Source: Psammoneis japonica
Taxonomy: Eukaryota
Reading direction: 5' to 3'
Assembly: GCA_008632985.1 (NCBI GenBank)
Contig: QPGO01000001.1
Span: 1-64,000, forward strand
Length of the DNA: 64,000 nt
Below the pieces are notes generated by a model that was not told where the DNA came from, ran no database searches, and saw only the letters and a program-made list of their open reading frames with translations. The translations under genes and the position numbers were made by a program. The first letter of the stretch is position 1. Each line of letters starts with the position of its first letter. Below are positions 478 to 47,149 of the stretch, piece by piece.

Positions 478-3050
478 ATGGCTTCGTGGTATACAGAAAC
501 AACAATATTGTCGTCGCTGTTGTCTGCTGCTTACGTCATAACAACACCGATGCCGTTCAAGCATACCGGTCAAGCCCGGAAGCTTTTTCCAATTTCTAAC
601 CTATCTCTACGCGGAACGCAAGTTTATTCTTGTCATCTTGATTCACTTTGTTTGTACCATGGTAATTTGGGGTGAGTAGAGTATATTGTATGATTGAGTT
701 GTGTGTGTGTGGTGTGTGATTTGCTATACTCATCAAACATACCGCCGCACCTCTATACCGTACTCCCTAACATAATACTACAGCACACTTCTTTGTGGTC
801 AAGTTTCATCAACAAGAAAACAAAGTACCCGAGGACGCAAATCGATATTGGTGGAAACGTCTCGCTCCGCCACTCGAGTTTGGAGCCATGCATGCCATTT
901 TGTTTCAAATGGCATTCCTACCGCTCACCATGGCTCGGCTCTCCATTGCGGCAGCCTCCAAAACATCTCTCAATACGTACTTTCCCTTCAACAAGAGTCA
1001 GCGCATTCATATTCATTTGGGATACGTCTTTGGGAGCATTGTTGTGATTGCCACGATTTTCTTTTTTGCCTTTTTTGGATTGCTTTGTTCCGATGGCGAA
1101 CAAGCGTTTTGTGACAAGTTTACGTCGGAAATCATGATTACGGGGTACATTACCGTGGCCTTTGTCTTGATTATCCTCTCTACATCATTCTTTCGAGATT
1201 ACATGCCATACGAAGTCTTTTATGGCATTCATCATTTGGTATTTGCCATGTACCTGGTGGTCTTGTTGCATACGATCGATATCAACGTTCGAAAGGACGG
1301 ACAGAATCGGAGTCAAACCTTCAAGTGGTTTTCGGCGACACTCTTGTACTACGTTTCGGACCGCCTTGCCATGCGGCTTAATCATCGCTACAAGACGCGT
1401 GTCCTTCAAGCCAAAATTGTCAAGAATACAAAGTCGAGTATGATTTTGCTACAGCTCAGACGTCCGTCCTTGTTTCAATACGAACGGGTCAGTACGCGCA
1501 TCTTCGGTTTCCCGACATTGATTCGTATTGGCATCCCTTTTCGATTGGAAGCAGTCCGGATTCCAACGTGTTGGAGTTTTATATTGAAGTCTATGACGAC
1601 AAATCGTGGACGGGAAAACTCTGTCAATTGTTGGGTAATGACGTTAGCCACGAGAATGTTCGTGTTCAAGTCACGGGCCCGTACGGAACACGCTTGGGTG
1701 ATACTCATCGATACTCTCATGCCATGGCTATTGGCAGTGGTTCTGGTGTCGTTCCCATTTTGGGACTCTACAAAAAGCACATTTGTCAGCTACTCCGATT
1801 GGACCCACAAACATACTTTGAAGAACAAGCTCAAATGCATTCGCAACTCAAGCGTATGGAACGAGCGCGAGAACAAACACGTGGATCGTGGCTCAACTAC
1901 TTTTTGCGGTGTTCACCTCAACCGACCCGACACGAAATGGGCGTCATTTCGGGAATCTTTGATTCGAGCGATGCCGAAACCAAGGACTTGCGAGAGGCGG
2001 CCAAGCGTGCGTCTTTACCGATTTATGGCGTCAATATATTGATGCAACTGGTTGTCTTGGGAGTAATCATGTTGGGATTGACCTTGTCGTGGAATACCAT
2101 GCCGTTTGAACTCTACGACGGCATGCGAGAAGTGTTGATTGTTGGCTCGATTGTGTTTCAAGGCGCCTTTGCCGTTGTGTCGATTGGATACTGGGACCGC
2201 GGCTCGTTGCTGGCGTATGTTGATGTTTTGATTGTCATTGCTGGTGCCGTGGCCAATTGGTATTGGTTTGAGTACGACAAGTGGGCCAACTTTGAAGCGG
2301 CCAGAGCATGTGTATTACATCTTGTTGTTTGGATACATGACGGCGCGGTTGTGGCATTCGGCCGTCAAGCCACGATACTGTTCATTGCGGAGCAGCTTGG
2401 AACGACAACACACGAGTTCAGCATTGGACAAGCTGCACTTTGTTTGGATTACGCGTTCATCCACCAACGTTTTGAAGATTGCACCCACAATCATGCAAGA
2501 ATGGAATGCGCTTGTTGCGGCGTGGGGATTGGAGAATGCCGTCAAGGTGTGTCAGGTTTCTATTTACGTTACCGACAAGGACAAGGCCGCCGTGGGCTAT
2601 CTCAAGCAGGAGTTGTCCAAGACGCCCCTTTACAAGCAAGGTGCATTCCATTATGAGCGTCCTGACATTTCCAAATTGTTGGAAGAGCATGCCATGGAAC
2701 GCATTTATGATGAGAGTCGTCCCACCTCGTCTACCCTCTTGTGCTTTTGCGGATCTCCCAAGCTATCATCAGTGATAAGCAAAGCCAAGACCATTGTGGA
2801 TATATCAACAATGATTACGGGAAACAAGTACCACCAAATGGATTTCGTTTCCGAGAGTTACAGTGCCTACACGAAGCGTCCGTCGTCGTCGAACAATAGC
2901 AACGCGGTAGTTGTCGCTGCCTCGGCAAAGACGCCACAGTACAGTGTCTTTATGGATTCACCCAGCTTTATGGAGAAGCAACATTCGGGAGATGAATTGG
3001 ATACGACGGATACCTTTGAAGACAATGAGGACCACCTTATTTCCATTTGA
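478..3050 (+). CDS. Ferric reductase / NADPH oxidase (FRE/NOX) family flavocytochrome, with three apparent 1-nt frameshifts
   Basis: Intron 672-783 (GTGAGT...CAG) joins ...TMVIW-A-HFFVVKF. Heme-type His in TM helices (RIHIHLG, YGIHHLV...LLH). FAD motifs (P)GQYA and WHPFSIGS are read across a frameshift at ~1484. NADPH motifs GPYG, IGSGSGVVP and C-terminal FCGSP...ESY. Other frameshifts at ~585 and ~2292 lie in short T runs. Confidence 0.88.
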
Positions 3051-3116
3051 GACTACAGAGGATCGTGGACGGCACGCAACTTTAGAATTGTTTTAGTTTA
3101 CCTTGCGCATTTATAA

Positions 3117-3196
3117 TTTATAACTACCTCAGCATACATTGATTGTCTTCAGCCTGTGATTCATAACTACCCCAGCATGCATTGATCGATTTCAGC
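3117..3196 (+). repeat. ~44-bp-period tandem duplication at the gene/TE border
   Basis: ttataactacctcagcatacattgat...ttcagc followed by tcataactaccccagcatgcattgat...ttcagc. Confidence 0.75.
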
Positions 3197-3299
3197 TTTT
3201 GTGTGTTAGTCTTTTCAATTGAGAACTAGATGCATTTACAATGCCTCCAGTTCCATTTGAGATGTGCATCTGGCTTTTAGAGGCACATGCTGGGAAGCC

Positions 3300-4190
3300 A
3301 TTTTGCTTCATTTTTCCTTGAGCAACTTCCACAAGAAGCTCGAAAATGCCCAACCTGGCCTGATTGCGAAACTTCTGCGTGCAGCCAAGATGGAAGACTG
3401 CAATGGATCTCCAACTCCTGCCCTTCCCATCTCTGTTGGCAGTGACACAGAAGGCCCACCATTCGATGAACCTTGTGACTGCCGATCTGTGGTTGGCATG
3501 TTGATGCATCCAGTGCCCAACAGCTGTCTGGACATCATCTGCACTGCCCATCAATTTGCTTGGTTCTCCTGTGCTCCAAAAGCCTCCCATGCCATTGCTG
3601 TCCAATGCATTCTTTGACACTTGAAGGACACGACTGACAAAGGGCTCATCCCAGCCCCAACCATGGATCAACGACTTGATTGTCATGTTGATGCCAATTT
3701 TGTGGGTCTCTTCCATGTTGAGGATGATCAGGTTCCTGCTTCTGTTAAGTCTCGCACAGGATGTCCAAGCTGCAGCGGCCCCTCATGGTTTTGTCTCTGC
3801 TGTTGGAGGCAGAGAATGTTTCTCTCCCAATCAATGCATGGCCTCATTCCCCTTTGTGAGATCTTGAAGGAAATCAATGCACATGCTTTTGGTCAGCTGG
3901 ACAGGAAGAATGGCATCACCACACATGCCAAGGCTTTCCAACCCACCAACGATGGAACCAATTCACCCCCCATTGCCTCTGCCAGCATCAGCTTGCTCAC
4001 ACGCCAAAACTGTCCCCACAAACCAAGCACACCATCGTGCCTTGTCACCAGTTTTGTGCTGAAGTTGAGGCTTTGGAGATCAAGATTGAGCCTGTCAGCT
4101 CTGCTGCACAGCTTGCTGACCAGTTTGCTGGGGGTTTGACTGCTGCTGATCTGTTCTGCACTTGTTGTGGGGCCCTCATGGGCTGGCGAC
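3300..4190 (+). mobile_element. Ty1/Copia RT-RNase H remnant
   Basis: QPGLIAKLL...DCN...TP, CRSVVGMLMH (consensus YRSVVGMLMY), CHVDANF (YVDADF), SVKSRTG and QLADQF..GL motifs; stops and frameshifts. Confidence 0.9.
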
Positions 4191-5308
4191 TGTTTGTCCT
4201 GCTTCTCTTGATTTTGCAGGCAGGCTGGGAGAAAATGAGTCAATTTGCTGCTGTTCTGTTGCTTTCCCCAAACAACAATGGCAAGTCTGCCACCCGTGGC
4301 AGAATGTGCAATCAAGGAATTGCTGCGGCAACATGAAGAAAACGCAGCAAGCCACCAAGGAAGAAGAGTGTCCGTCAACGGCTGTTTTGGAGGTCCTGCT
4401 TCACTTGAGCTGCACCAATGTAAAAGTGATGCAGGCTTCACACTTTTTCATCTTGCAGTCTTCTTTGCAAACATCCTTTTGAAATGCCTGGCACCACGTG
4501 CAAAGCTTTTGGGTCCATCAGGAATGAACCGCTCTCACAGCTCTTTTTGTGCTCGATCGACGACAATGGGGCGAACAACCCAAGGTCCAAATTGTCATGG
4601 GTCTTTTTGGCAAATGCAAATGACTGTGCACCGGAGTGGAGTGGCTTTCCATGAGACAACAAACGCCAACGTTGGAAAACAAGGGTGGGTCTTTTTTCAA
4701 CAATGGCAGACTTGACAACATGCATTGATTGACCAAGGTGGCAAAACACGCCACGTGTGCACCAACAACAGCATCATCATTTCTGCTCGACAACAACAGG
4801 GGATGATTTCGATTGGTGTTGTTGGTTTGGTTGTTGATGTTGAAGTGAAGTGCGGCATTGGCGGCCTCTCTTTTTGGCACGCACCGGCCGGCTGGCACGC
4901 ACCGGTGTGACTGCACCTATGTGGGTGACAGACGGACGGACCAACCGGATGGCCACATAGTACGCCCGCCTAAAACCAACATGCGTGCAGCGCAACGCTT
5001 GAACCGCACGATCGTTCATCGCGGGAATAAGCATGCAAGCAGTTGGAAGTTGAAGTTATTGGTTATTGTTCTGTTGTTCTTCTGTTATCCCATTGCTTCA
5101 TTTAATTCGTTCCTGCCCTTGTCTCACGGGCAAGCGTCGCTGTTCTACAGCATAATCGATCTCGCCTTGTTGCCATTGTGTTGGTGCCTGTCTCCTTTGC
5201 AGTTGCGTTTCTGCTGAGCAGAGGAACCACCTCTTGTCTCGCGTCTCACCGATCCGGACTCCGCAATTTTGATTCTGCATCTCGCAGAAAGACACAAAAA
5301 CAGCAGAC

Positions 5309-8300
5309 ATGCTTGGTGACATCATCGCCGGCATAGAAGCGGCTTTCAACTTGTGCGCCGTGATTTACAAGAGCTATGAAACGGTAAAGATCATGCCGGA
5401 TTTGGCCAAGACCCTCAAGGACCGCGTACAAATATTCAAACCGCGACTCGAGAAACTCGTTAGGGAATGCCAGGCATCAGGCACATCACAGAAGGTAATT
5501 CCGCTTTTGCATATTCAAAGCTTGAACACGGTGTTGGGTGACATTCAAAAGTACATGAAGAAGCTTCAGGATGACTCTAAACTACGAAAGTTGAAGAATC
5601 GGGTGTTTTATCAGAGTCTCCTGGATGAATATGAAGAGCTCAACACCAAGCTCAATCGTTGTCGGGATGATCTTAAATTTGACTTTGAGTTTGATGTCGA
5701 TGCCGAGAGAAAAGCGTTTGAGAATGAAACGAAAGGTCTCCTACAGTGTCTTATTGATCATCAGGGTCAAGAGCACCGTATTCTGCGCGAGATGCTTCTG
5801 AAGTCCTCAGGTTCATCAAGGGTCACAAAGCGCTAAATCTCAATGAACAAAACAGTCCTGCTATTGTGACCGCTTCTGCATTTATGGACAATAGTGACTC
5901 TGCAACTCTACGAGCTATCATTGATGAGCAGAGTGCCATTGAATATGAACTCCCGCCATCGGAGGTCGTTTTAGAAGATATCGAGCTTGGAGCAGGCACC
6001 TTTGGTGTCGTATACAAGGCAACATACAATAATCAAGATGTTGCCATCAAGAAGCCTCATCGTCGAGAATCGGATGTTTTGGCGGAACTCATGAACCAAG
6101 AAAGATGCAGCGGCTCGCCTTTTGTTGCCCTTATACACGGCTTTGTTTATGTCAATGAGATTCGGTCTATTGTTATGGAGTTCATGCCATGTGGTACTCT
6201 AGGAGGTCTACTACGCCACGCAATGGGAAGGGATGGGATTGTGTCCATCAGCAAGGACCAGCAAAGTCTCGAGGCCACACTAGCTGCGTACACAGTAATT
6301 CAGCTCTTTCACAAGGTTAGTGAGGGAATGCGATTCATCAGTCAACGTAATGTGATACACCGCGACCTCAAGCCGGAGAATATTCTTCTAAGTCAAACTC
6401 TTGACCCCAAGATTGGGGATTTTGGGTCTGCTCGAGAGCTCGCAAACAGCGCGACTCACCTTTCGGGATCCGCTGCTGGATCTGTATACTATATGGCTCC
6501 GGAAGTATTGACGGTCCTTAAAGCTGACAAAGGACAATACTCCTATCCTGCCGACCAGTACAGTTTTGGAATGATCATGGTTAAATGCTGCCATGGTCTG
6601 TTTGGTCAGCAGTCTCGTGTGGACCGGCACGACGAGGACGCGCCTCTTCCAGAGATTCCTCTTCCTGATGCGTTCCCTTCTTCGGTAACAGATATCAAGA
6701 ACAATTGCATTGCTTCAGACCCATTGATGCGCTATGGTCGTGGCACCGCTTCAGAATCACTTCTATCAGAAGCGTTCGAGAAGGTACTGCAGCAATTGGA
6801 TAGCTCTGTCTCTTATCCAAAGATTGATGGGTATTATGGTGACGACGTTGCAGAGGTGGCAAATATTGCTCGGATCGCTTTTGAGAGTAAGACGCATCGT
6901 GGGGTATCTGGCATTATAACTTCGTCCTCATCGCTGATCCCAACACCCGGCATGGAGAAGAAGCCATTGAAGGACGGAGAGCCGAGCTACTCCACCGCGT
7001 CCTTGTCACATTCGTCTACATCCGCGAAAGAACCGGTTCCTCGTGCAAGGAAGGAGAAGAAAAAGAAGAAACCGACTGCTGATCTCCGAGTTCAAAAAGA
7101 GCAAAGTGCATCGTCTCGCAGAAAAAAGCGTCCTGATCTCCGAGTTCAAAAAGAGCAAAGTGCATCGTCTCGCAGGAAAAAGCGTCCAACTCGTTCCGGC
7201 AGCTCGAAAGAAAAAGGACAACCAGCGCAAACTGGATCATCAGCAATTGCTTCAAGTGGTCACAATGACAGTGCTGAAAGAGAACGGGGCGTTAAGGACG
7301 AGACGCAAAATACAAGCGAATATCATAGCCGCACCAGTCGGGAGAGGTCCGTCAACAGCACAGCCACAGCAAGCCTTGCGCTATCGGCTGCCGCGTATGT
7401 CGCGCCAGATGCTTTCACAGTGACGTCTGGAGACCAAGCTGCACAACCCGAAGAACCGGACAGAGATGACCGCGTCACAGTTACTTCAGATTCCAACAAA
7501 GTGATGGAGATGGATCCAGCACAAGTCGTAGAGGCGGTTCCTGCTACTTCTGATGGTGGTGGTGGCGGACAGAATGAGAAAGCAAATGACACAACGCGAA
7601 TTAGTGACGAGGATGAGAATGCTGAAGATGAGCTTCATCGCAAGTACCTTCGCAAACGATTCATTATTCCGGGCGTTGTATTGTTGGCGATTGCAGCGAT
7701 TGTCAGTATTGTTGTTGCAGTAAAGCCGTGGGACACAGGTGGTGGAGGGAGCCCCACTTTCCCCCCTACTGTTTCCCCTACTGTTGCACCCGCCACAGAG
7801 ACTACCGAACGAGCCACCGGTTTGGTCATGAGTTTGATTGGTATTGATACCGAGTTTGATGAAAATGATTCCGAGTTGTGGGCTACGGCAACCAAAGCAT
7901 TCGTCGAGGATTATTACAACACTCGTCGTCGTCGTCGTGGCCTTGGCTATCTCCAGACCCCTCGTATATTACAAGTATCGAATATACAGAATGTCGAGAC
8001 GTCTTTGGATGTTACTAACACCATTGTGGTTGAAGATGGCAATGGTGGAGAACCATCCCTTCGAGTCACATACAACCAAGCTATCACGTATACTTTTGAA
8101 GACAGCAGCAACGAAAACATTTCCATGGATGCCATGGTGACCGAACCATTCAAGACGTCTGATAGTCGATCGGCCTACCAAAAAGACCTCCAGGCGGCGG
8201 GCACCAGTGCTGGAAGCAACATTTTTGACAATTTGATTGGCACTAGTGAAGTTTCAACCAGCACAGCTGCTCCGACACCGTCACCTACAAATAGCATTCC

Positions 8301-10036
8301 AATTACGGAACTACCAACACAAGATCCCGCGTCGCCACCGTCGACTCCGGGTCCAACGACTCTCAATCCAACATCGTTGCCGACGACAAACCCCACTCCT
8401 CGTCCAACTCTCAATCCAACACCTCGTCCTACACTCAATCCAACGCCTCGTCCAACTCTCAATCCAACCCCACGCCCCACTCCATCACCAGCTCCAACAA
8501 CACCCAATCCCACCAGTGGTGGTGGCAGCAGTAGTTTGCCGCCAAACGGTCCATGGAATCCCGTTGGACAAACTTTGCACGGCAAGGCTGCAGAAGATCG
8601 TTTTGGCGATTCCGTGTCCTTGTCTCGTGATGGCAGTGTCATGGCTGTCGGAGCGGATCAAGATTTGTCTTCTTCCAATCCCGGCTATGTTGTTGTGCAA
8701 CGATACAATCCAAACACCCAACAATGGGAACAAATTGGCCAAGAATTGATTGGACAAGCCGGCGGTGACGGTTTTGGAGAGTCTGTTTCGTTAAATGGCG
8801 ACGGCACAATTCTTGCAGTTGGAGCGGATGCAAATGACAGTGGCGGATTGAATGCCGGTCATGTTCGTGTGTTTGAATACAACTCGGCATTGGATCGTTG
8901 GGTCCAACTCGGCAGTGACATTCTTGGACAAGACGCTGGTGGTCGATTTGGTTTTTCCGTGTCGCTCTCGGACGCGGGAGACATTCTTGCCGTGGGAGCG
9001 TTATACGATTACACGGAAAATGGCTCTGATTCTGGATCGGTTCGATTGTTTCAATACGACCGCGGCTCCTCATCCTGGAACCAACTCGGACAAACACTCA
9101 TTGGCCAAGCTGCTAATGATGAATTTGGTATTTCCGTGTCCTTGAATGCGCAGGGAACCATTGTCGGCGTTGGAGCAAATTACAATGATTCGGGTGGAAA
9201 CAATGCGGGTCAAGTGTCGGTGTTTGAATACAATTCTGCCTCATCCAGATGGGATTTGTTGGGCAATCCAATCAATGGCCAAGTCGTTGAAGGGCGGTTT
9301 GGATTTTCGGTTTCTCTTGACGACAGCGGTTTGATCATGGCCGCGGGTGCACCTGGAAGCTACGACGAGACGGTTTTGGTTTATTCATACGACCGCTCGA
9401 CTTTGACGTGGAGTCAACGTGGCCAAACTCTATTGACACAACAGCGTGGCGATTTTTTTGGATGGTCCGTGTTCGGGTGGAAACAATGCGGGTCAAGTGT
9501 CGGTGTTTGAATACATTTCTGCCTCATCAAAATGGGATCTGTTGGGTGATCCAATCAATGGCCAAGTCGTTGATGGTTGGTTTGGATGGTCGGTTTCTCT
9601 TGACGACAGCGGTTTGATCGTGGCCGCGGGTACACCTGGAAGCTACGACGAGACGGTTTTGGTTTATTCATACGACCGCTCGACTTTGACGTGGAGTCAA
9701 CGTGGCCAAACTCTATTGACACAACAGCGTGGCGATTTTTTTGGATGGTCCGTGTCATTGAGTGGCAATGGAAATGTCTTGGCTGTTGGAAGCAATCGGC
9801 ATGACGTCAATGGATTGATCAATGCGGGTCAAGTTCGAATCTTTCAGCACGACAGCAATGCAGACGAATGGAAACAAGTTGGAAACCCTTTAAATGGTGA
9901 GGCTGAAGACAATGGTTTTGGAGGATCCATTTCATTGTCGTCCGACGGAAGCATCGTTGGAGTTGGTGCACATTTTGCTGATGTCAATGGCGGCGCATCC
10001 GGATCCGCGTACGCATTCACGGTAAATGACAATTAG
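5309..10036 (+). CDS. Receptor-like protein kinase: N-terminal MLKL-like helical bundle, Ser/Thr/TKL kinase, single TM helix, Pro/Thr stalk, FG-GAP beta-propeller
   Basis: ORFs 5309-5836, 5866-9510 and 9446-10036 join via frameshifts at ~5828 (A run) and ~9471 (283-bp duplication). Kinase motifs GAGTFG, VAIK, HRDLKPEN, DFG, APE are intact. TM FIIPGVVLLAIAAIVSIVVAV at ~7660-7722. Repeats of FG.SVSL..DG..LAVGA. Confidence 0.85.
7079..7186 (+). repeat. 54-bp in-frame tandem repeat (DLRVQKEQSASSRRKKRP x2)
   Basis: Two near-identical copies read directly from the sequence. Confidence 0.95.
8350..8510 (+). repeat. 24-bp coding repeats (PTLNPTPR) of the Pro/Thr stalk
   Basis: Repeated ccaactctcaatccaac units. 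Confidence 0.9.
9189..9754 (+). repeat. 283-bp tandem duplication within the FG-GAP region
   Basis: 9189-9471 and 9472-9754 both start ttcgggtggaaacaatgcggg and end gatggtccgtg; several substitutions between copies. Confidence 0.95.
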
Positions 10037-12165
10037 AAAATGTATTTTGCGCTACATCCTCTTGTATCAATCACACTGTATTTTTTGTAGTTTAGTTCAT
10101 TTGGTAGACCGTACATTTGCGTCGTTTGGCTCGTGTCATTGTGTGCTGTTTTTCGCGTTTGTTCCAAAAATCAAAAAAGTCTGTCTGTCGTGCGATTCCG
10201 CTAGTCTATCACGAACCACACATCACACACACACACATCACACATCGGCTCGCGGTCTTGAACAACCATGACGCTATCAACAGCACTACGAATCATCATG
10301 TAACAACAACAACAACGATGTCATAACGTTTGGAGGATTATCCGCCTCGTGAGTAGAACACATCAACAATGAGAGTTGTTTTGAACAAACTGTGTTGTTG
10401 TTGCATGAGTCGAATGCTGCCGCTTGTGAAAATCATTGACACGCTGCTGCTGCCACGCACGCTACAATATTGTTGTTGTACATGTCTACGCACTCTCATA
10501 CTCATCACTCCTTCTCTTTCACACTCTCTCTCTCTCTCTCTCTTGACTACACGTAATGATTCACTTAAGTGTTGTCAAGACACACAAGTCCTTTGAGGGC
10601 TTGACTGCAGCTACCGGGGAGCATGCCCACAGAGTATGGAATCAGCAGCAGAGCCGGAACCAGTCAATCAAAAGTCGAACAACTGTCTCAGCAAGCACTC
10701 ATAGGCATGGTGGAGCGAAGGTATTGTACGAGCACACTGGATGCATGTTGTTGTCATGCATGTCTACGTACTCTCTCAAACGAATTAAAAATGGCCTCCA
10801 TCCACACTAGTTTGGGCGTGCGACTCTGTGAATGTTGCTGAGCTCTTTCGAGATGTGGGCTCTGAACAACGCGTCGGTTATTATGCAGTGTGTTTTGAAT
10901 GTACGTGTTTGATGTTGTTTCCATGTATTGCTGGGTCATAACCATCTGCAGCGGCCTGGGTGGAAACGTATGGATTTTTTGGAAAAGAGTTGCAACTCGT
11001 ATAAAGTGGATATTGGAAACCACGTGTGTCTCGCGGTCGGACAGTTCTCCAGCACAAACCATGGCGGCGCCTGTTGGATATCATACAGTGAACAAGTAGC
11101 GGGTGGAACGGGCTTGTTGGAAACTGCTGTGGTGGGACAAGAAGAAAAAGCGCGATGAGGAAATCAACATCCAAACAACCACAACCGAAGGGGGGTGCAC
11201 GGTGCCGGTACTGCTACTACTACTACTACTGCTACTGCTGTACGAACTATATAACAACAATGACACGGATGATTATGACTTTGGAAATGTCGATATCTTT
11301 GTACTGACTTTTCTATTGGCACTCGTCAATATTAACGATGACAACGACAAGAAGGATGACGAAGAGTATTAGTAGTATCAACAATGGCACTAGTAACAAT
11401 GGCGCGGTGGTGGAAATATCATTTCATCCTATGGAGACTTGAAAGCACGATTTGCCGATAAACTCAACAAAAAAAAGGGACCGCTTGGCTGCTTGTGGGA
11501 TGTCTTTGTTCCTCCCTCCTACTGCTGCGAATAATAAGGACAAGGACAATGAAAACTACAATGACCTTGGAGATGTCGATAGAGGAAGGGGTTCCTTTGA
11601 TACCACATGCGTGGCGGAATATAAAAATGTACAATTGCAAGAACGAAACTGAATCCTCGAGATGGTTGGGAAGCGATGGAGGATGAAGTCGTGAATCATG
11701 AACGCTGCTCCGACTCGACTGTTGTTGCAAATGATATATTGTCGGCCTATACTGTGCAACCCGTCTGGAAGACACTCTCTGCATTGCTATGGGGTGTTTG
11801 TCTTGGAATCGGTAGAGCCTGAACCATGGTCTCTCAAAAATTCAAACTCCTGTCTCGGCAAACAATGCAGGCACGGTGGAGCAAGCGTACTGGATGCAAC
11901 GAACGATTCGTGACGTGGTATTGGAATTTCTGCGCTCTCTTCATTTCGCCAGATGCTTTTTTTGGATTTCCAAGAAACTCTCTAGACTGACTGCTCTCCA
12001 CTCTCTAGCTGTAGCTCTAGAGATCCCTACATAAAGAGTAACACGTCCCCAGCTGCTAGTAGAGCCACTCTCTCACATGACAGTGCAACAGAGAGAGAGT
12101 GCTTTGGACTTGAGAAAAGAGAGGACGCACACCGCATGCTCTGCTAGAGTAGCTAGCTGCACAGT

Positions 12166-12684
12166 TCGAATTGTCGATGATTCGTTCGATTCGAAGCCGG
12201 GTTCTGAGCTCACCGAACATTCGTCGCCATGACACGCTCGCCGTCGCAAAACAACACCATGATGCCTCTTGACCTCTCTTGTTGATGCTACACTGTAATT
12301 GTGTTGATGTCATGGCTCTGTGGTGTGCAGCAACAGCAACATTGTCGCAACAACAACATGAATGCCACGCTTCTTGGGTGATGCTCACAGGTGCTCGCAC
12401 GCCATGGCTGTTGGCAGTGGCTCTGGTGTGGTGTCCACGTTTTGGGTCTCTGCAAAAAGCACATTTGTCAGCTGCTCTGATTGGACCCACAAACACACTT
12501 TGAAGAACAAGCACAGATGCATTTGCAGCTCAAGGGTCATGGCTCAACCATTTTTTGCAGTGTCAACCTCAACTGACATGACACGAAATGGGCGTCATTT
12601 CAGACATCTTTGACAACTCAACTGACGTGAAAACCACTGACTTGCAAGAGGCAGCCAAGCTTGTGTCTCCACCCATTTGTGGTC
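12166..12684 (+). pseudogene. Deleted, hypermutated copy of the ferric reductase gene or a close paralog
   Basis: Three joined pieces match ~335-513 (upstream region and 5' end), ~1693-1852 and ~1888-2028. Confidence 0.92.
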
Positions 12685-12689
12685 CTTGT

Positions 12690-13443
12690 TGCATTTTGAC
12701 AAAGCCAACCCACAGCTGGCGTGTTCCTCCATGCCGGCGCCAATTGTCAATGCACCGGGATGAAGCACAATGTCTGCTGGAGGGCAACCCACTTCATGAG
12801 TGTCATGCAAGCACTTGCACATCCCAACCTTGTCCTCCTTGGTCACTGCTTGTCCTTGTTTGAAAATTGCCACAACTGCTGCTGCAGCTCTGTGTCTCTC
12901 TGACCATGTTCAACCACCTGCTGCTCTCCACAATGTGCCTCTTGGTGGTGCTCTTCCTGTTGAGCCCAAAACCCTTGCCCCAGAGCATTTGTCATGTGAC
13001 AGCAAGTTGTTTGCTGACAGATTGAGTCTCTGTGGTCTTTGTCTCCAGCACGCGACAAAACCATTTCTTGTGAAAGTGCCATTTGGATGATGCCATGATG
13101 TTCAGATGAGACATGAGGTCATTCACAGACACTTCAAAATTGCTTGATGAAGCTGCCACAAAGTGTGGCAAAAGCAACAAAAGTGCTGTTTCACGTTCTT
13201 TCCAACTGCAGAGTCAGGTGACTTGGAAGACATGTTGTCAGAGATGTGAGAGACTCTGCTTTTTAGATTGGCCAGTGTTGGCATGATGAAAGTTGCAGTG
13301 ACATTCCAAAACTGCAAAGGAGCAACAACAGGATTTTCGAAAAATCAAAATGTTTTCAGTCGTGATTGCACGGCAAAGCATGGGAAAATGGCGGTCACTT
13401 CATCAATCTCATTGTTGATGAATGCAAGGCAAATGAAAAAGTC
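12690..13443 (-). mobile_element. Possible MuDR/MULE remnant
   Basis: Minus-strand CKC...VG.P..H pattern near 12760-12820 resembles a degenerate SWIM finger; TA-depleted. Confidence 0.35.
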
Positions 13444-13447
13444 ACCC

Positions 13448-13836
13448 GACGTGTTCCAGCCCCAGGTGGGACTCCGTGTGACATTGGGCCCGCAGAATTC
13501 TACGTGCAAGCTCTGAAGCACGGGAATTTAATCAATGGACACATTTGTCTTCAACATCAAATGAACGGCCAAGTTTGTGGTGCAATCATGCCTCTCACCC
13601 TCGACGTTTTTGCAAATGCGCCTGCCCTGCACGATTCTTAAGACATTGTAGAACAGCGCTGCAACAAAAAATGTCAAAAGTTTTTGGACGGATCGCTCAA
13701 CAAGTGCACCGTAAAATGACACAAAACATCAAAAAAATCACATAGAAATCCATGTGCGCGACATACGACGAGATTCAAAAAACCATCGATGTCACAGTTC
13801 AGTGGTGCGAGGTCCCACCCAGACCTGGAACACGTC
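13448..13836 (-). mobile_element. ~389-bp MITE (GAC...GTC family), copy 1
   Basis: TIRs gacgtgttccag..aggtggga / tcccacc..ctggaacacgtc; 4-bp TSD accc; inverted relative to copies 2 and 3. Confidence 0.92.
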
Positions 13837-14100
13837 ACCCCCCATTTTAAGACCACCACAACACCCTCTTTCAACTGAGGTGCCTCTCGTTTTGATCCAA
13901 GAAAATTCGTCTCCATGTGATTTGTGCAGCATCCCCACCCATGGCTGTGCAGCACGGTCTGCGCACACTGACTGCCAATGCTGTGCAAGTGCCTGTGCTG
14001 ATGATCTGAGCTCTGGGGCTGCTGCACTGCACAGTCTTCACACGCTGACTGCCAGTGCACTTCTGTTCGTTCAAGCACCTGTTCAAGCACCTGTGCGTGT

Positions 14101-15355
14101 GGTTGGGCTCACAGTGCATGTTGCTGGATCTTTCAATCGAGAGCTCGTGCTCATGCGTGCAGGTTTTGCGCTGTGACACTCGTGCAAAAACTGCGCGGTT
14201 TTTAAAAAATGCCTGGATTCAGCCAATCAAAAGCTCCAAAATCATCCTCTCGCGCTCGCATCAGCAACAAATCTTTCCGAGGTGTGCCGCAAAGTGCAGC
14301 AAAACACCGACACGATGATGCGCTGACAACAAACAACAACGAAAGCAACGATGCAACGACCTTCAATTCATCATGACAACCATGGCACCAGGCAGAAAGA
14401 AATGCTCCAAGGACAAGATGCAAAGAAAGAAGCGACCAAGGTTGTCTGAAGAACAAAAGGCTGAGAGGAAGAGGAAGATTGCCGCGACGAAAGCCAGAAA
14501 AGGCAGAGAAGCAATGCAGCTGGCTCTGAATGGTGGACTTGCAAGAGCTGAAGCTCCTTGTGACAAAGAAGAGGAAGAGGTTGAGACACAGGTTGCTCAA
14601 GGTGAGCAAGAGCAGCAAGACAAGGTGGGGAGCCCTTTGCTGCCTGTGGACTTTCCAGCTGTCATGGCAGAGCTTGACTTTGATGATGATGGAGGTGTTT
14701 TTTCTGAAGAAGAAAGCGAGGACACTGGCAAACCTGGAGGAGTCATGGCACAATGTCTTGCAGCCATTCAAGCTCAACTCAGGAGAGAGACAACTGGAGG
14801 TGGTGTTGGGGCGCTTGACTGACCGTGGCTGTTGGACTGGAGAGTCCCACCTTGGGATGCAAGAATTGTTTGTAGGAAGCTCGGCATCCCATTTGGGGAA
14901 CCATCCCACTGCCGAGAATTTGTGGTGTGGCTCCCACAATTCAGGTGGGGTCCAGAGGCCACTCCATTTTGCCCCACATGCCTCAAAAACCGCGAGTGGG
15001 TCTTCACGGCTGCCAAACCAATCATGGCACCAGGCGAGTTATTTCTCTCAACACGTGCCATTGTGTCATGACGGCCCAACAAATTTGCCATGATTGCAAA
15101 GCACGATGCCAGAATGGTGAAGGCATCCCACAACACATGCTCATGGGACATAACCCAACTTCTGTTGGATTGCTGCCTCATGGACACGGCGACGAGTTTC
15201 CCGTGTTCCTGACTCACAAGGCTGCAGTCGACAAGGAAACAGTGCTGGGCCTCATGCGTCCAGTTCATGACAAAGGCATGCGGCCCGAAGCACTTTCCAG
15301 CCTGCTTGTTGAATTGCATTCTAAAAAACTCTTCCGTGAGCTCATCAAAAGAGAA
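14101..15355 (+). mobile_element. DUF6729-type DNA transposon, copy A, 5' part
   Basis: 14101-14860 is nearly identical to 28921-29700. Motifs C..C...FPVFLTHKAAVDK...LVELH. Interrupted at ~15356 and resumes at ~23069. Confidence 0.75.
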
Positions 15356-16194
15356 AACATGTGCCGACGTGACAGGCAGTCCAACCCCACAACACAAAGA
15401 GACGTCTGGTGGGGCAACAATCTGACATCGCGCGCGAACTCGCGTGCGACATTCTTGCCGGACATGTCTGAATTTTTTAAATTTAACATGAATTTTTTTA
15501 CACGCGGTGTCAGAAATCTTGCTTCTCATCTAATTTTTTTGTCATGTGTCACAAGAAAATTTAAATGCAGTGACCATGCAGAGAATGTTCCCGACATTTT
15601 CAAGTGCAACACTCATCCACTTTTCACCGTGCGACAATTTACCTTTGTGACAGCCCCCAGTTCACATTGCTTTCAAACCTTGCTTTAAATCTAACAAGCA
15701 CACGGACAAGATTCCCGTCATTTTACAGCGCAACACTTGGGTGCTTTTCACATTCTACATTGCTGCAGCTTCCGAGCTGAGTGGATTTCCCGGTTGACAT
15801 CAATGCCGCCGTTGTTTCCTGCTGCATGCTGGCAAATGCCACTGCCGTTCCGCGCGCATCCTCGTTGCACCCTCAGTCGCTTCTGTGTGTTGTTGTTCAC
15901 TCCTCTTCATCGAGATCCTGTTTGTGTCGAAGCGCTGTTGTCAGTTGCTGCTGTTCCTGGAGTCTCTTCCTCTTCCTTTTTGCTCCCTTGCTCATCGTTC
16001 CTTCCTTTGGCCTCCTCCTCACTGTCGCTCCAATCATTTTTTGGAGCAGCCCATCCACTCATGCTGTCCTTCTTTTTCTTCTTTCTTTTCTTGCCACGAG
16101 CGCTCTCTGATTTCTTTGTCTGCAGGCACTGTGCATTGACTCTGCCGCAATCCGTTCTCTCCTTCGCCACAGCATCATAGAGTTTGTTGCACTT

Positions 16195-16583
16195 GACACG
16201 TTCCAGGTCTAGGTGGGACCTCGCACTGCTGAACTGTGACATCGACAGTTTTTTGAATCACGTCGTATGTCGCGCACGTGCATTTCTACGTGATTTTGGC
16301 GAAATTTTGCATGATTTTACAGTGCAATTGTCAGGCTGTCCATTGAACAACTTTTAACATTTTTTTCTTCTACTTCATTCTCGAGTGTCTTGAGAATGGC
16401 GCAGGGCAGGCGTGTTGTCCAAAACTTCGAGTGCGAACAGGGATGGATGCACTGCAAACTTGGCCATTTTTTTCATGTCAAAGACAAACATGTCCATCAA
16501 CCAGAGTGCGAACTGCAGAGCTCGCACGCAGAATTCTGCGGGGCAAATGTCACAAAAAGTCCCACCTGGGACTGGAACCTGTC
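16195..16583 (+). mobile_element. ~389-bp MITE (GAC...GTC family), copy 2
   Basis: TIRs gacacgttccag / ctggaacctgtc; TSD actt on both sides. Confidence 0.92.
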
Positions 16584-18002
16584 ACTTGTTGATCCCATCC
16601 TGGTTCCATCCTTGATTTCATTTTGCCCCTTTCCCCAAGAAAGTGCACTTGGTGGCCACGGGTTGGGTCGGTGGCTGCGTCGCGCCGTTTTGTTCAAATT
16701 GCTCTTCGATCTCTGCCACCGACACGGCCGTTTCGCAGCAGTTGTCACACATCAGCCTGGCAAAAGCTCCATGCTTGTTGTCAGCCAATCGCTGACACCT
16801 TGGCTGTCCGATGTTTTAAAGTGCTCCATTCCTGCCGCCAGGGAGCAGCAATTTTCCAAGAACCAGAAGTGCATTTGAGGCAACACCCTGCCCTTTTTGA
16901 TGTCTTTGACGCTTGGCATTCCATTGCATCTGGCCATTTCTGAGCAAGAATCAACTTGTGAGAACACTGGCCCATCTCATCCACGCACAGCCCTGGCAGC
17001 ACTTGCGAACCAACTTCTTTCTAAAAACCTCCTGCCTGTTGTTTCTTCTTCTGTTCAGTCTTTTCTGCACCTTCTCCTTGTTCTCTTCCCGCCAAACTGC
17101 AGAGTCACTCGCATCCACGTTGAGGTGTTTGCAAACCTTTTTCTGCATTTTGCTCCCGAACACCAACTCAACCTCGTCGTGTGTCACGAATTTTGTCTTG
17201 GGGTGCACAGCCGTTGCAATGCAGTTGGTTGTCTGGCCATCCATGAACTTTCTCCTTGCCGCCTCCGAGCTGATGACCAACATTCCCGCAATCTCCACAT
17301 TGTGTGATCCTGTCTCTGCCGTGTCATGGGGGCTGACTGCATCAAAGGACACAAGACATGCACAAGCTTGCCAACCCGTTTGTGCAATGATGCCGCAACG
17401 CACACACCTGATGAATTGTTTCGCACCATCATGTTTGCTCACCCACTCTCCAATGTGTTTTGTGTCAACAAAATTCCTCCCTCTGTGCCAAACCCAGTCC
17501 TGAGTGTGCGCCCGCCAGCTTGCCCATTGGCCCTTTTTAAAAACTCCCTTTTGTTGCATGCCAAATTTTTCAAAGCACTCACTGTCAAACATCAACTGAT
17601 GAATTTTGCACTCCTTTTGAATGGCATGTTTTGTCATTGTCAGCCTCACATCATCCGTTCACTGCACATTTCATGATCTGCACGAAGAACAATGGCACTC
17701 CCCACTGTTGCATGCCACAATTTTCAAATCGCCAGCTGATTTTTTTTTTCGTCCAGATTTTCATAGAAGCAAGGGCTGCAGTCCGAACACTTCTTTTTGC
17801 TTTTTTATCTGGCATGCGACACCTTGCTGTGCCATCTTGGTCACCATGATCTTAGCTGCCCTGATCTTCTTGCCCGCCCACAAAGAACAGAGCACCGTTT
17901 TGACACAGTTCTCAACTCACCAGTCCGTTAAAAATTTCCATGATGTGGCAGGTGCTGTGTAGATTTTATGCTGTCTGGGCCATTGGGCTCATCTCTTTGC
18001 CC

Positions 18003-19007
18003 TCACTCGTCACCCAGCCTTGCTCTCACCCTTCTGTTTTCCTCATTGTTGACTCCTTCTTCTTCTCTTGCCATCTCGTGTGATTCCTGCAAGCGCTCCA
18101 CAACTTCGTGCAATCCACCGTTGTGACCACATCTGGCTGCATGCACTCCTGTGCAGAATGCCCGCAATCCCAAGAGTGCTTTCTTGCACACTGCTGTGTC
18201 TCCGCTCACCAGCGGGGGGCAACATCCCTCTGCAAAAGGCCAGGAGGCTCTGTCGCCATTGTCGTGTTTGTCCAGATGAATCGCGTTAACACTGGTTTCT
18301 CCTCCTGGTCTCACCTCACCATCTCTTCTAGGTGGCAGAGCACACACAATGTTTGAGTGGCGGCATTCTTTGTCTCCTTCAAGGCAAGCCAACACAATCG
18401 CGCAAAGCAGCTGCTGCGAAACGGACACCGGCACCTCCAACTCCAAGCCCACCAAATCTGTCATCAACGTCACTTTGTCCACGCACGTGTTGCAATGGAT
18501 CTTTTCCTTTTTCATCCACCCTTTCACAAATGGTTGCAAGCTGCACCTGCGGTGTCCATCACCATCCATGCACCCCACCGCGACATGACAATTGAAAGCT
18601 CTGCAGTCAATGCAAGCTCTGTTTTTATCCAGTCTTTCATGCAAACTCATCGTCCGAAACTCTCCCTCAATGTGCACCTCTCGCATTTCACGCAATGGCC
18701 CATTTGTCCGGTTTTTCCACATTAAAGTGCATCTGGGATCGCCAAAGTTGCACCTCCACATTCTCAGTGCATTGTCTTGCTTCGCTGCTTCTCTCAAAGC
18801 ATTGAGCACATGTGGAAACAACTGTTTGTGAACAAACAGCCATCTCCACATCATCTTGTAGCTCGTGCAAGAAAACACACACTCCAGGACGCCTTTGGTC
18901 AACGCAAGGCATCCCAGGCTGCCCAGTGTGTCGTGCTGTTGGCAATTGGACACAACATGTTCGATCAAAGGATGTGTGGCAGCTGTGGTGCCACTTCGAT
19001 TCTGCAT
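18003..19007 (-). pseudogene. Degenerate ORF of unknown function, co-oriented downstream of the Plavaka-like transposase
   Basis: 334-codon protein-like ORF with charged C-terminus; TA-depleted, so its length may be inflated by loss of stop codons. Confidence 0.3.
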
Positions 19008-19699
19008 GGTCGCTGCATCAAAATTTTATGTGGGGCCACACCCGGGGATTCCAATCGTGCCATTTGTTTGTCATGTGTCGCTGAAAGTGAGTGCAAAATT
19101 TCAATGTTTGTCTTTCACCTTGTTGATTTGATTTCACACAATTGGGATGTAAATCGACACACTGTCGTCAAAAAAGGGTTGATTTTTTGTCAAATTTTCC
19201 ACACTGTCACCAAAACAAGAGAGTGATCATGCACAACTCAATTTTCATTGCTGAGGACAATTCTTTTGTGTTTTTGTGGTCCCAGGTGATGCTCCTGGGA
19301 CTGCAGCCCATGTGTTCACAATGTCACACAACCTCTTCACATCTGTGTTGCTGTTTTCTTCTGCCAGGTTGCAACCCACTCTGTGACAAACATCCATTTT
19401 CTCCTGCCATGTTGTTGTCATGTTCCAACTGTCACCACATTCATCATCTGCCACCCATTCTGACAGGACTTGATCACCGAAACAACAAACATTCTTGGCA
19501 ATGTGCGCATTTCCAACCTGGTCAGCATGTCAGCAAGAGGACCTTGACACACAAGAAGACAGCTTCTGTTGGACTGTCTCCCACTGGCATCAATCATTTG
19601 TTCCGCACTCTCAATGCTGATGGATTTCTTGGCACAAAAAATCAACAACGTCTGGCTCTAGATGAGCGCTTTGTTCCCTTTTCATTTCCAAGGTGCCGG

Positions 19700-22600
19700 T
19701 GCACTCGCAGCATGTTTTTTCAACTCGGTCGACTGTGAACATGGCGTGACCCAGGTCGTGGTGTAATGCTGCTGCCACTGACAAATCCTGAGTTGCATGT
19801 GGACGGACAATCAAATTGTTGGCTCTCTCCAAAAGACTCTGCTCTCGCACAGTTGGCTCACAAGTTGACATGTGAACTCTTCTTTGCCTTGCAATGCTTG
19901 GCAGGTCTGACTTGGAAGCTTTGCCCATTTCTTTAGACCAGACTTGCCGGTGGTGGCATCCCATCCTGAAAACACACCCAACCGACAAAGAGCGGCGACC
20001 AAGTGCAGCAGGTCATGGAACTTGGATGTTTTCCATCCATGCGTGCCTTCACCACGATTGATCATGCTGTGCAGCTCAAACATCAGAAGCTCTGGGTGAC
20101 ATTCAATGTTGGCTCAGTTGGTGCGTGAGTGCAGGGAAGAACCACAGCTGCAGAAGGAGTGGAACAACAACAATTTGTTGAGCAAAAGCAACAAGTGTTC
20201 CGCATCATCACAGTCCACTGAACAACAAGCCAGCTCCAGGTCATTGCACAGGCTGTTTGGCCTTTGGCGGAATGCAAGAGGCAACTCCTTTTCAATTTCT
20301 GAACAAACGAATGGTGGGTTGTGAGAATTTGCCTTTGTGTGAAGGGACTGGTGTCGATCCACACAGCGTCTGAAAATCTCAGAAACAGAGGAATCGGTGT
20401 GGTTTGGGATGCAGAGTTGATGATCCAGGTTGACATTTCTTTTTGCATCCACACAATGTTGTGACAAACATGAGCTTGAGCTGTTGTCAGCTGCTGCGTG
20501 TGAGGACACTTGTGCATGAGCCCGTGTCCGCGATGTTGATCCTCCAGATGTTCGTTGTGGACTGGGTCATCGTGTGGCCACATTCTTTGTCAGTGCAAGG
20601 CTGGTTGACCGAGGATGCGGAGGCCTGCGGTGGTTGATCCCCAGGGGAAACTTCCTCCTTGTCACTTTCTTCCTCGTCATCTTGTGGATTTGGTTGCTGT
20701 TTGTCTGAATCACATGCGGACTCATCGTCGTCGTTGTCGGAAATGGGCTCACCTTCTTCGTGTGCATGACCATCATTGTCCTCTTCTTCGTGTCCACATT
20801 CTTCTTTGTGTTCATGTTCTGAAGGCTGGTCATCGAAATTAGAAGCGCGTTTTTTCTTTGTGTTGTCAAAATCTGGATGGCAACGAAGACGGAGCATGCT
20901 CCGTCCCTCCTCGGTCTGACCCATCAGTGCCAATGCAAACAGCTTTTCCATCTTTTGGTTGCAGGTCAAACCAGACAAGGTGCAAAATCCATTTTGCAAG
21001 ACAGCCGGTGGAAAGTTTGATCTCTGACCTGGTCTGCACCACTGAGATCCAAACACGCGGTTTGCCAAATCATTCAGTCGGGATTTGGAAGAATTGGGCA
21101 AATCATCGACAATGACGGAGAGCGTCTGAGGGACTGTGCCGCCTTGGAACATGTGCATTGGATCAGGGGACGCAAACCCAAACACACCCTGACGATTGTC
21201 TCCCATCCGAAGACAAAAGAATGAATTGTCAACCGTGTGTTGGCCACACACCTTGTGGGGTGTGGTGGAACAAATGTTCATGCACCGGACGACTGCACTG
21301 CGTGCCTTGGAATGGATTGAATCGGCTTTCGACTTGGACATCACTGTGTCCATTTGTGATTTGACACAAAGATGCCATGGACTGCCGGTGGAACCGGGTG
21401 GTGGTCCAAGGGCTGCAACAGTTAAACACTCCATCAGTTCTTGGGAAAAGTGCCTGCAGCAATGCAAAGGTTCATTGCTGTTGGTCCAGGAAGTGTGACA
21501 GGCACGACTGATGCGGCGGGAGTTTTCGCACCCAGAAACACGGCCGGTGACTTGTGCGACGTTGACAGCATCGCCCAACGACGTTGCACTGTGAACAACA
21601 ATGCGCTTGTGACAATGCTGATTGCCAAGTCAGACTCGGCAGACAGGAGGTGATTCTTGCCATTGAATTACAGACACTGGAAGGACAGATGAAATTCAGT
21701 GGCAATTTCTGATGTTCATCCCTAAAACGGGATTCTTTGTTTTGCAACCTGTGTGTTTCGGAACAAATCCGAGAGGTCGCCATGCTTCAAAACAACGGTG
21801 GGCACATGACTTGATGAGAGTTGCAGAGAAAACAAATGGCTCCATCGAATGAGGTGTGACCTGTCCTTTCCCAGTTTTGTCAGTGCAACGCAAAACAAAC
21901 ACATGAAAGGAACCGGGGACGGCGGGAAAAATGCTGCCACAAAAACAGTTCCTGCAAGTTTCACCATCCTTCTTTTTGGCGTCGTCACAAAGTTTCCAAT
22001 CGCCATTCTCGTCCAACATGGGTTCACTGGAGAGCACCTGAGACCAACGTGAATCAGGAGGAACATCAAGATTTGAAAGATCGGCAAAAAGGGGATCATC
22101 GAACAGATTCTGCAGTTGGAGGGAAAAGTCATGCACAGGGATGCCGGGAGAGAGCTCCTGAGGCAGGTTGTTCTTGAATTGGTTGACGATGGACACAGAC
22201 TTGAGAGGAATGCACTGCAGCACTGGGGCCACAATGCTGGGCAACACCAACTTGAGCTTGGACATGAAAGTTCGAGAAGAGGGGATTTGTCCAGTGATGG
22301 ACAACCCACCACTGGAGAGTTCCTCCTGCACAGTTCTCAGCAGTTCATCTGTCGTGCTGATTGGGACACCCTTGTGGCAACACAAATTCAACATGCAGAC
22401 CATGGATGTCGTTTTGCAGTTGTGCGCTTTGGGCACCACGAGGTTCTCGTCCGCGGAGAGGTGTCCAACTTGATCGAGTGCGGAAAAAGGGCCAGATTCT
22501 GCAACATTGGTGGCAGAGCCCTCGGCATCAGAAACAAATTCTTTGGGGTCTGGAAACTGGCAGTCTGAAACATCATCAACGTGGGGAAGAACGGAGTTGT

Positions 22601-22961
22601 TGTGGGAACCACGCAGCTCTGGCACAGATGAAGGTGCGCGATTGGAGCGTGGCGGCCGGGGATTGTGTCGGGTGCAACCATGTGGAGCTGGAACTGCATT
22701 GGCATCGGGACCTGCGGCGACAAATTCAAATGGAGAGCCGGGGGTGGAAGAGGTGGCAACATCCACTTGTTCATCCAACTCTCCAGTTTGGGGGTGTTTG
22801 CCATGAGCGGGGTCGGATTGATGGGAAGAAACATCGCAAAGGCTTTGAGAAAAGGACAGTTTGCAGGTGAGACAAGTTCTCAGGTGGTGTTGAAGACCAG
22901 TTGGGAGAAAACGTTTGCCACACACGGGACAATCATTTCTGATGGCAAAGGGGGCCGCCAT
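19700..22961 (-). mobile_element. Plavaka-like transposase remnant
   Basis: N-terminal CPVC...H..C finger; CTDKTG (YxDKT), EPFVFS, AWRPLGFVP, GDA...GR, PDPMHMFQGG and KFHDLLH motifs across ORFs 21696-22961, 20487-21578 and 19811-20083. Confidence 0.75.
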
Positions 22962-23068
22962 TGTTCATGTTGTAAAAACAAATGAGATGAAAATGAGTGG
23001 GACGAACCACGTGATAAAAAAAACACGTGGCAGGTGACAAGATTGGGCTCTGCATGAATCAACTCAGG

Positions 23069-47082: not shown

Positions 47083-47149
47083 GGTGCTGCTTGGGTTTTT
47101 GAATGTGCAGAGGAGGCAAGAACTGTGTGGCTGGTGCTTTTGACTGTGA

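Follow-up and report, generated by a model that had tools for sequence, protein, structure and literature searches.

The ferric-reductase gene and its duplicate

The window, that is, the whole stretch of 64,000 nucleotides of Psammoneis japonica DNA analysed here, holds near its left end a ferric-reductase gene and, further downstream, a pseudogene that gives two collinear matches, on the same strand, to this gene 11.8 kb upstream. These matches were obtained by BLAST of positions 11801-13200 against the 64,000-nt window, and the pair is laid out as follows:

~300-3050, plus strand: parent ferric-reductase (FRE/NOX-type) gene, with its Pfam domains in order, ATG at 478 and ordinary TpA content
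12173-12347, plus strand: pseudogene piece 1, matching gene positions 333-513 with 79.3% identity over 184 columns; 5' untranslated sequence and the first 36 coding bases
12373-12682, plus strand: pseudogene piece 2, matching gene positions 1693-2028 with 74.2% identity over 341 columns; the stretch 3' of the FAD-binding domain

The parent gene shows Ferric_reduct, FAD_binding_8 and NAD_binding_6, correctly ordered and spread over three frames, with E-values of 2e-8, 3e-8 and 1e-7, all of which pass the curated cut-offs, together with an intron at 674-783 (GT..AG) and TpA odds of 0.61. Its frame breaks, at ~585-589, ~1484 and ~2240, may be residual assembly indels rather than the mark of a dead gene, because the first two lie at short base runs and because at 5795 one T is present in both runs, X1 and X2, but absent from the window; the runs are contigs of one sample, possibly the one assembled, and their depth serves as a hint only. 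The designation of the parent gene as intact is thus a probable one, resting on domain order, on the codon-position evidence presented below and on the likely origin of these indels in the assembly.

The pseudogene lacks everything that corresponds to gene positions 514-1685, and its second piece carries a 31-base deletion, insertions of 2 and 3 bases and two in-frame TGA codons derived from CGA. Neither a GT/AG splice-site junction at the 513/1686 joint nor a poly-A tail was found in it, and the only clear intron of the parent gene falls in the missing part. Judged from these features (the missing segment, the indels, the CGA>TGA stops and the lack of a splice-site junction and of a poly-A tail), the pseudogene is a dead copy of the ferric-reductase gene, duplicated at the DNA level and rearranged.

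Fate of TpA and CpG in the pair

A global alignment of the pair comprises 477 aligned columns with 78 mismatches, and the 18 TA dinucleotides of the parental segments compare with 2 in the pseudogene. In 16 cases both bases of the parental TA are aligned; nine of these read TG in the copy, four CA, one GA and one CG, and only one is kept (gene 462, copy 12296). The GA, at gene position 439, involves a T>G transversion, and the CG, at 386-387, lies in a badly aligned indel patch that is effectively unalignable. The two remaining TA are one at 1856, within the 31-base deletion, and one at 457, which is split by a gap in one alignment and kept as copy position 12289 under an equally good gap placement. 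In piece 1 the TA at 454, 490, 492 and 506 became TG or CA, and in piece 2 all nine aligned TA were converted, six to TG and three to CA. The changes described in the initial annotation, namely six in 1693-1852, three in 1888-2028 and the 5' change from GGTATACA to GGTGTGCA, are all present in this alignment. Its broader statement that every coding TpA is converted applies to all 12 of the coding TA that are aligned (3 of them in the first exon, 9 in 1693-2028), and does not extend to the 5' untranslated part, which keeps two, since both kept TA (457 and 462) precede the ATG at 478. From the pseudogene onward no TA occurs for 968 bases (12296-13264).

The alteration of TA in 15 of 16 cases exceeds that of other dinucleotides, TA and CG excluded (103 of 422; Fisher p = 1.8e-8), and it is one-sided, as gene TA reads TG or CA in the copy at 13 of 16 sites and gene TG or CA never reads TA in the copy (0 of 71; p = 5e-13). 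The co-occurring CG to TG/CA changes that had also been described were recovered at 13 of the 30 CG of the pair; 12 CG are kept and 18 lost, so that these 13 make up most of the losses. The mismatches that belong to neither the TA nor the CG class (49 of 78) indicate that the pseudogene is old or that its source was other than exactly this locus.

At two places within 468-475, aligned with 12302-12309, the gene reads CA and the copy TG, which may reflect either an ancestral CG whose decay took opposite strands in gene and copy, or an ancestral TA that both lineages converted; in the latter case the process would have extended to some degree into the 5' untranslated region of the gene, about 200 bases from the TpA-free sequence at the window start.

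Direction of the change

The change runs from TA to TG or CA, as indicated by four independent lines of evidence, namely the 13 versus 0 asymmetry, the codon positions affected, an outgroup protein and the loss of Tyr from transposon relics described further below. In the coding part, the TA-class changes are distributed over codon positions 1, 2 and 3 as 4/4/1 and the CG-class changes as 3/5/5, compared with 4/6/20 for the remaining 30 mismatches (chi-square p = 5e-4; TA class versus rest, Fisher p = 0.006). The TA- and CG-class changes ignore codon position, and therefore arose without selection, that is, in a dead copy; the third-position excess among the other mismatches points to a largely synonymous divergence under selection in a functional lineage. 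At the protein level, the TA-class changes in the pseudogene replace Tyr by Cys or His, Thr by Ala and Ile by Val. The outgroup protein P0001 (37% identity, the sole relative found in a single homology search) shares T45, I55 and Y152 with the gene, as opposed to A, V and C in the copy. At Tyr positions of the gene that read Cys, Cys and His in the copy, its residue is Phe, and opposite a TGA stop of the copy it is Arg; the outgroup never agrees with the pseudogene against the gene.

These data also bear on the possibility that the source was another functional ferric-reductase paralog that already carried TG or CA at these positions, in which case the pair would be silent on direction. The 49 other mismatches would be in agreement with such a source, as would the location of 20 of the 30 within the coding part at third codon positions, which implies selection in a functional lineage. 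Nevertheless, this explanation is very improbable, since the TA-class changes are spread 4/4/1 over the codon positions and yield residues that run against the outgroup, and since a functional gene devoid of TA over 500 bases would stand apart from the other genic blocks, which in this window contain 35-48 TA per kb. Besides, the homology search recovered one relative only, at 37%, and X1 contigs do not pile up on gene or copy at 80% likeness, which is a weak hint: the gene bins have a depth of 235-265, like their single-copy neighbours, and the pseudogene has 101, in comparison with up to 87,089 for repeats. The close paralog proposed as the source in the initial annotation is possible but not required, as the lineage behind the third-position divergence was possibly this gene itself.

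TpA-free domains of the window

Five TpA-free domains together cover 43,487 of the 64,000 bases (68% of the window), and the pseudogene lies at the left end of the third, D2:

1-287: domain D0, 0 TA, CpG odds 0.50; cut by the window start
3279-4917: domain D1, 2 TA, odds 0.02; between two genes
12155-26287: domain D2 (14.1 kb), 71 TA, TpA odds 0.078, CpG odds 0.56, TG and CA odds 1.66
29024-48952: domain D3 (19.9 kb), 89 TA, odds 0.066, CpG odds 0.43
50783-58281: domain D4, 28 TA, odds 0.065; holds a Copia relic

The domains contain 0-5 TA per kb, with odds of 0.00-0.08, and five genic blocks contain 35-48 TA per kb, with odds of 0.53-0.71. The domain borders are sharp, within ~100-700 bases; D0 ends 46 bases 5' of the duplicated segment of the gene. 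The loss of TpA is accompanied by TG and CA odds of 1.4-1.9 and CpG odds of 0.37-0.64, and over 64 one-kb windows the TpA odds correlate with the CpG odds (Spearman 0.69) and inversely with the TG/CA odds (-0.67), the loss of TpA being about 3-4 times more complete than that of CpG. This correlation fits the suggestion, made in the initial annotation, that the process overlaps probable 5mC domains. GC-biased gene conversion was rejected as a cause, since ApT, ApA and TpT have odds of ~0.7-1.4 and GC differs by only 0.02, being slightly higher in the domains (0.492 versus 0.473).

The recognizable contents of the domains are Copia and gypsy remnants (RVT_2, SH3_retrovirus, Integrase_H2C2, DUF6729). 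In D1 a C-terminal fragment of a Copia polyprotein was detected (tblastn match 3261-3965, plus strand), the Pfam content of D2 is limited to DUF6729 and zinc-finger remnants, and D3 includes a gypsy-type remnant with Integrase_H2C2 at 47704-48144 on the minus strand. Only 9 of the 106 ORFs in or beside the domains have a Pfam match at E <= 0.01, about four of them of transposon type, and long spurious ORFs are numerous (124 with at least 130 residues) owing to the disappearance of TAA and TAG stops. The claim that the process is not limited to TE sequence stands insofar as host-derived sequence is affected; it is restricted by the finding that the change affects the copy within a repeat domain and not the parent, whose odds are 0.61.

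Several further observations concern the sequences in and around the domains. The 170 bases to the left of the pseudogene (11983-12154) contain 12 TA, including six CTAG and three GTAG; as these are mostly conversion-resistant contexts (see below), the true border of D2 may be near 11983 rather than 12155. A MITE-like element of ~393 bases, with terminal inverted repeats of ~20 bases, occurs at 13444-13836 (minus strand), 16190-16582 (plus strand) and 24571-24960 (plus strand), inserted in older relics; other genomic copies are without the insert (contig joints skip 393 bases), and its summed contig depth amounts to 65,730-87,089, compared with ~250 for single-copy DNA. Each copy keeps 5-7 TA and is thus partly depleted, so the element may be younger than its surroundings. 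Outside the domains, a 284-base tandem repeat, 95% identical, in the FG-GAP part of a kinase gene (9189-9755) keeps 5 and 6 TA, and many X1 and X2 contigs with internal skips at 7500-9900 suggest a gene family of variable repeat number. At 60334-64000, on the minus strand, lies an RTEL/FANCJ-like DEAD_2 helicase with an inserted PDZ, an architecture common to most of its diatom relatives in the database; its best matches are from diatoms (50-62%), followed by Triparma (40-41%).

Loss of tyrosine from a Copia relic

A second indication of polarity, independent of the single gene/pseudogene pair that the window offers, is provided by the relic in D4:

51113-55869, minus strand: Copia polyprotein relic, nearly full-length, 54-59% identity to full-length relatives

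The reverse-transcriptase part of this relic has 0 Tyr in 238 residues, and at the five columns that hold Tyr in 89-95% of the 85 Copia reverse transcriptases compared, its residues are H, C, C, H and H; the catalytic Y-V-D-D motif position is among these columns. Over the whole polyprotein, the 36 Tyr positions of the relative P0262 read in the relic as Cys in 17 cases, His in 11, Phe in 4, Tyr in 2 and other residues in 2, that is, Cys or His at 28 of 36. Four other residues served as controls, with 40 of 58 Phe positions kept, 22 of 28 Trp, 17 of 25 Cys and 23 of 43 His. Cys and His are the expected products of TAY>TGY and TAY>CAY, and their ratios in the relic comparisons were 17:11, 18:9 and 14:8.

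A horizontal origin of these sequences from a source of intrinsically TA-poor composition was rejected for the pseudogene and the Copia family, since related loci show normal TpA and keep Tyr: 79 of 80 metagenomic Copia loci related to the relic have TpA odds of 0.39-0.90 (in a scan that used the smaller alignment A2, A1 being too diverse), and all five Tyr are kept in 113 of the 119 closest long relatives, including elements of Nitzschia inconspicua and Cylindrotheca closterium. Tandem double mismatches of the CA/TG type between transposon copies were dropped as evidence of polarity, since they would equally result from an ancestral CG; their share of the double mismatches was 22/33, 4/4, 12/18, 4/5, 9/17 and 3/4, and a comparison of the three MITE copies was likewise ambiguous (CA/CG/TG 3 versus CA/TA/TG 1). 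Related patterns were also observed elsewhere, as a metagenome contig (L060, 1-1789) has TpA odds of 0.04, like the domains of the window, with CpG odds of 0.20, and the database Copia proteins P0159, P0121, P0108, P0107 and P0339 show the Tyr>Cys/His or TpA-free signature, P0339 having the same H-C-C-H-H residues as the relic at 60% identity.

The TpA-free stretches belong to the genome and are not a product of its assembly. Miscalling of modified bases at TpA could be envisaged, since the window indel at 5795 and the frame breaks at base runs suggest a long-read assembly; the artefact is, however, extremely improbable. X1 and X2 contigs, which may be from the same sample as the assembly, reproduce TpA-free stretches without substitutions (X1 contigs match 3070-4093 and 4086-7108 with none, and 12241-12738 with one), the changes go together with stops, indels and Tyr>Cys/His replacements in relics, and unrelated database proteins and one metagenome contig carry the same pattern.

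Strand symmetry and sequence context

Both strands are affected in the pseudogene, with 10 A>G versus 5 T>C changes (binomial p = 0.30). A strong strand asymmetry was found in the block 45001-49000, with TG counts of 297 and 269 versus CA counts of 139 and 158; this block corresponds to a gypsy-like relic with its integrase remnant on the minus strand, and its plus strand is rich in G+T, with a GC skew reaching 0.40, an AT skew as low as -0.38 and CpG odds of ~0.1. The asymmetry, which could be due to intrinsic composition or to strand-limited deamination of a single-stranded intermediate, counts as evidence against a purely symmetric in-place process, which does not predict it.

It is the kind of pattern that strand-limited editing would give, and leaves room for some editing of RNA or single-stranded cDNA during retrotransposition, in the manner of ADAR or APOBEC, with the pseudogene as a retro-copy carried along. 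Fungal mRNA editing also prefers a U before the edited A. As an account of the domains as a whole, this explanation is improbable: the changes involve both strands, at 10:5 in the pseudogene and 17:11 in the Copia relic, the depletion follows the borders of domains and not those of elements and takes in host-derived sequence, and the pseudogene is without GT/AG junction or poly-A, the clear intron lying in its missing part. The preference of ADAR for a U 5' of the edited A would also fit RNA editing (Mettrop et al., bioRxiv 10.64898/2026.01.13.699255, Discussion), against which stands the occurrence in place of the mutations reported in the same preprint for Bigelowiella natans.

The conversion depends on the flanking bases. 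Retention of TA in the domains was computed, strand-collapsed, against two references, genic windows and 50 Copia loci, these windows or foreign loci being taken as a stand-in for the ancestral composition:

TTAA: retention 0.59 versus genic windows, 0.59 versus Copia loci
CTAG: 0.51 versus genic windows, 0.29 versus Copia loci
CTAA: 0.35 versus genic windows, 0.31 versus Copia loci
GTAA: 0.17 versus genic windows, 0.17 versus Copia loci
ATAA: 0.11 versus genic windows, 0.13 versus Copia loci
CTAC: 0.11 versus genic windows, 0.11 versus Copia loci
ATAG: 0.05 versus genic windows, 0.04 versus Copia loci
GTAC: 0.035 versus genic windows, 0.042 versus Copia loci
ATAC: 0.011 versus genic windows, 0.013 versus Copia loci
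ATAT: 0 versus genic windows (71 there), 0 versus Copia loci

The strand-symmetrised trinucleotide retention is 0.04 for TAT, 0.07 for TAC, 0.18 for TAG and 0.27 for TAA, and a multiplicative per-strand model fits, in which conversion per strand is far higher at T-A-Y than at T-A-R. The pair alone is too small to reveal this preference, as 11 of its 13 edits are in T-A-Y, with ~10 expected from the available contexts, and the six sites that offer both contexts are split 4:2 between T-A-Y and T-A-R.

Proposed mechanism

The interpretation that we favour, with a probability of roughly 85%, is a directional conversion of TA to TG or CA that takes place on the DNA of the domains themselves. According to this interpretation, the ferric-reductase duplicate would have ended up within a block of silenced transposon relics, and in such blocks of this diatom T-A would be changed to T-G or C-A, the equivalent of A>G on either strand, most strongly at T-A-Y, with ordinary CpG>TpG/CpA decay proceeding in parallel. 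The sequences establish the direction of this change, its dependence on context, its symmetry between the strands and its restriction to the domains. That both strands are affected, and host sequence only inside a domain, points to a position-guided process that would act in place on double-stranded chromosomal DNA and be confined to sharp-bordered domains. Duplication as such is not the trigger, since the parent gene and the intragenic 284-base tandem repeat are spared; the guidance would be positional, probably through silent methylated chromatin. The likeliest enzyme would be a TadA/ADAT2-type adenine deaminase acting on DNA, such as has been proposed for Bigelowiella natans, and both the agency of an enzyme and its guidance by silent chromatin are put forward here as suggestions of the sequence pattern. 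Adenine deamination itself is a tentative assignment, possible and somewhat short of an even chance.

A different chemistry would serve the same in-place process. An enzyme that modifies thymine, by JBP/TET-like oxidation to 5-hydroxymethyl- or 5-formyl-uracil, might mark the T in R-T-A of silent chromatin, and the modified T would mispair with G and give T>C. As T-A-Y is R-T-A on the opposite strand, all the sequence results fit this possibility equally well. In dinoflagellate DNA, 5-hydroxymethyluracil is found preferentially at TpA and TpC, and 5-formyluracil directs the misincorporation of G. We consider this chemistry unlikely, although the preference of the B. natans authors for adenine deamination, which speaks against it, is based in their preprint on candidate-gene grounds only (10.64898/2026.01.13.699255).

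Comparison with known systems

The closest precedent is the TpA hypermutation of integrated viral DNA observed in mutation-accumulation lines of B. natans (Mettrop et al., bioRxiv 10.64898/2026.01.13.699255). According to this preprint, two viral inserts accumulated 231 mutations, of which 230 were A>G/T>C changes at TpA, with rates close to 6e-7, the rate of new mutation being raised ~1000-fold and the process active in only some lines; the genome contains TpA-depleted, CpA+TpG-enriched clusters with reverse-transcriptase and DDE domains, an ADAT2-like protein is the candidate enzyme, and the DNA-editing ADAT2 of amphioxus and Trypanosoma are cited (10.64898/2026.01.13.699255). The pair and the Copia relic share with B. 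natans the A>G/T>C changes at TpA on both strands with TpG and CpA as products, and the five domains share the coupling of TpA loss to CpA+TpG gain and its confinement to mobile or foreign regions. The differences concern the host, a diatom (stramenopile) instead of a chlorarachniophyte (rhizarian), and the targets, which here are LTR-retrotransposon relics and a host gene fragment instead of giant-virus and virophage inserts. The process is also close to saturation in the window, with odds of 0.02-0.08, compared with 0.45 for a viral region and a cluster cut-off of 0.43 in the B. natans preprint, and it is accompanied by CpG decay, unlike what is described there. Regarding the preference for a pyrimidine at +1 found here, the main text of the preprint does not contain the words 'trinucleotide', 'context' or 'flanking', nor does this main text mention diatoms, and no report of TpA-specific depletion in diatoms was found in the literature, searched mainly at abstract level.

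With fungal RIP the process has in common irreversible, context-specific transitions that wreck repeated or foreign DNA and leave a dinucleotide signature. RIP, however, converts C to T at CpA, so that TpA is enriched and GC drops, whereas the domains have lost TpA and are slightly higher in GC; moreover, RIP mutates both duplicates, whereas here the parent gene (odds 0.61) and the 284-base tandem repeat keep their TA. The process is therefore a mirror image of RIP and not a member of it. Deamination of 5-methylcytosine likewise yields TG and CA, and CpG decay shares the same domains (CpG odds 0.37-0.64), but it cannot touch TpA. Animal APOBEC3 and ADAR also hypermutate mobile elements, and ADAR shares the preference for U/T before the edited A; these enzymes, however, act on single-stranded cDNA or RNA and in a strand-asymmetric way, in contrast to the changes described here, which involve both strands and non-mobile host sequence. 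The natural substrate of TadA is the A of U-A-C in the anticodon loop of tRNA-Arg, and this U-A-C resembles the T-A-Y preference of the domains. To our knowledge, no natural chromatin-targeted DNA adenine deaminase has been established.

Implications for diatom genomes

The new elements are the lineage, the targets, the near saturation, the +1 preference and a simple polarity test, since a gene/pseudogene pair combined with the Tyr>Cys/His test gives the direction of change without mutation-accumulation lines and can be applied to any assembly. For genome annotation, the affected relics lose their Pfam matches and their TAA and TAG stops and yield spurious long ORFs, and the silent domains can be read from the spacing of TpA alone. 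Candidates for the enzyme can be narrowed down by means of the T-A-pyrimidine preference, and a natural A>G editor of DNA, if real, would be a context-specific source of interest for base editing.

A process known from one 2026 preprint is now extended to diatoms, which are major, genetically tractable algae, and its saturation on transposons argues for a real role in genome defence. It is conceivable, as a proposal that we hold with more doubt than confidence, that diatoms, or this one at least, possess a DNA adenine deaminase of T-A-Y specificity guided by chromatin domains, a 'mirror-image RIP'. If so, Tyr codons, including that of the reverse-transcriptase active-site Tyr, would be irreversibly erased from any DNA residing in silenced repeat domains, also when it derives from the host, and the presence of the process in a stramenopile as well as in a rhizarian would make it an old, SAR-wide genome defence and not a chlorarachniophyte oddity.
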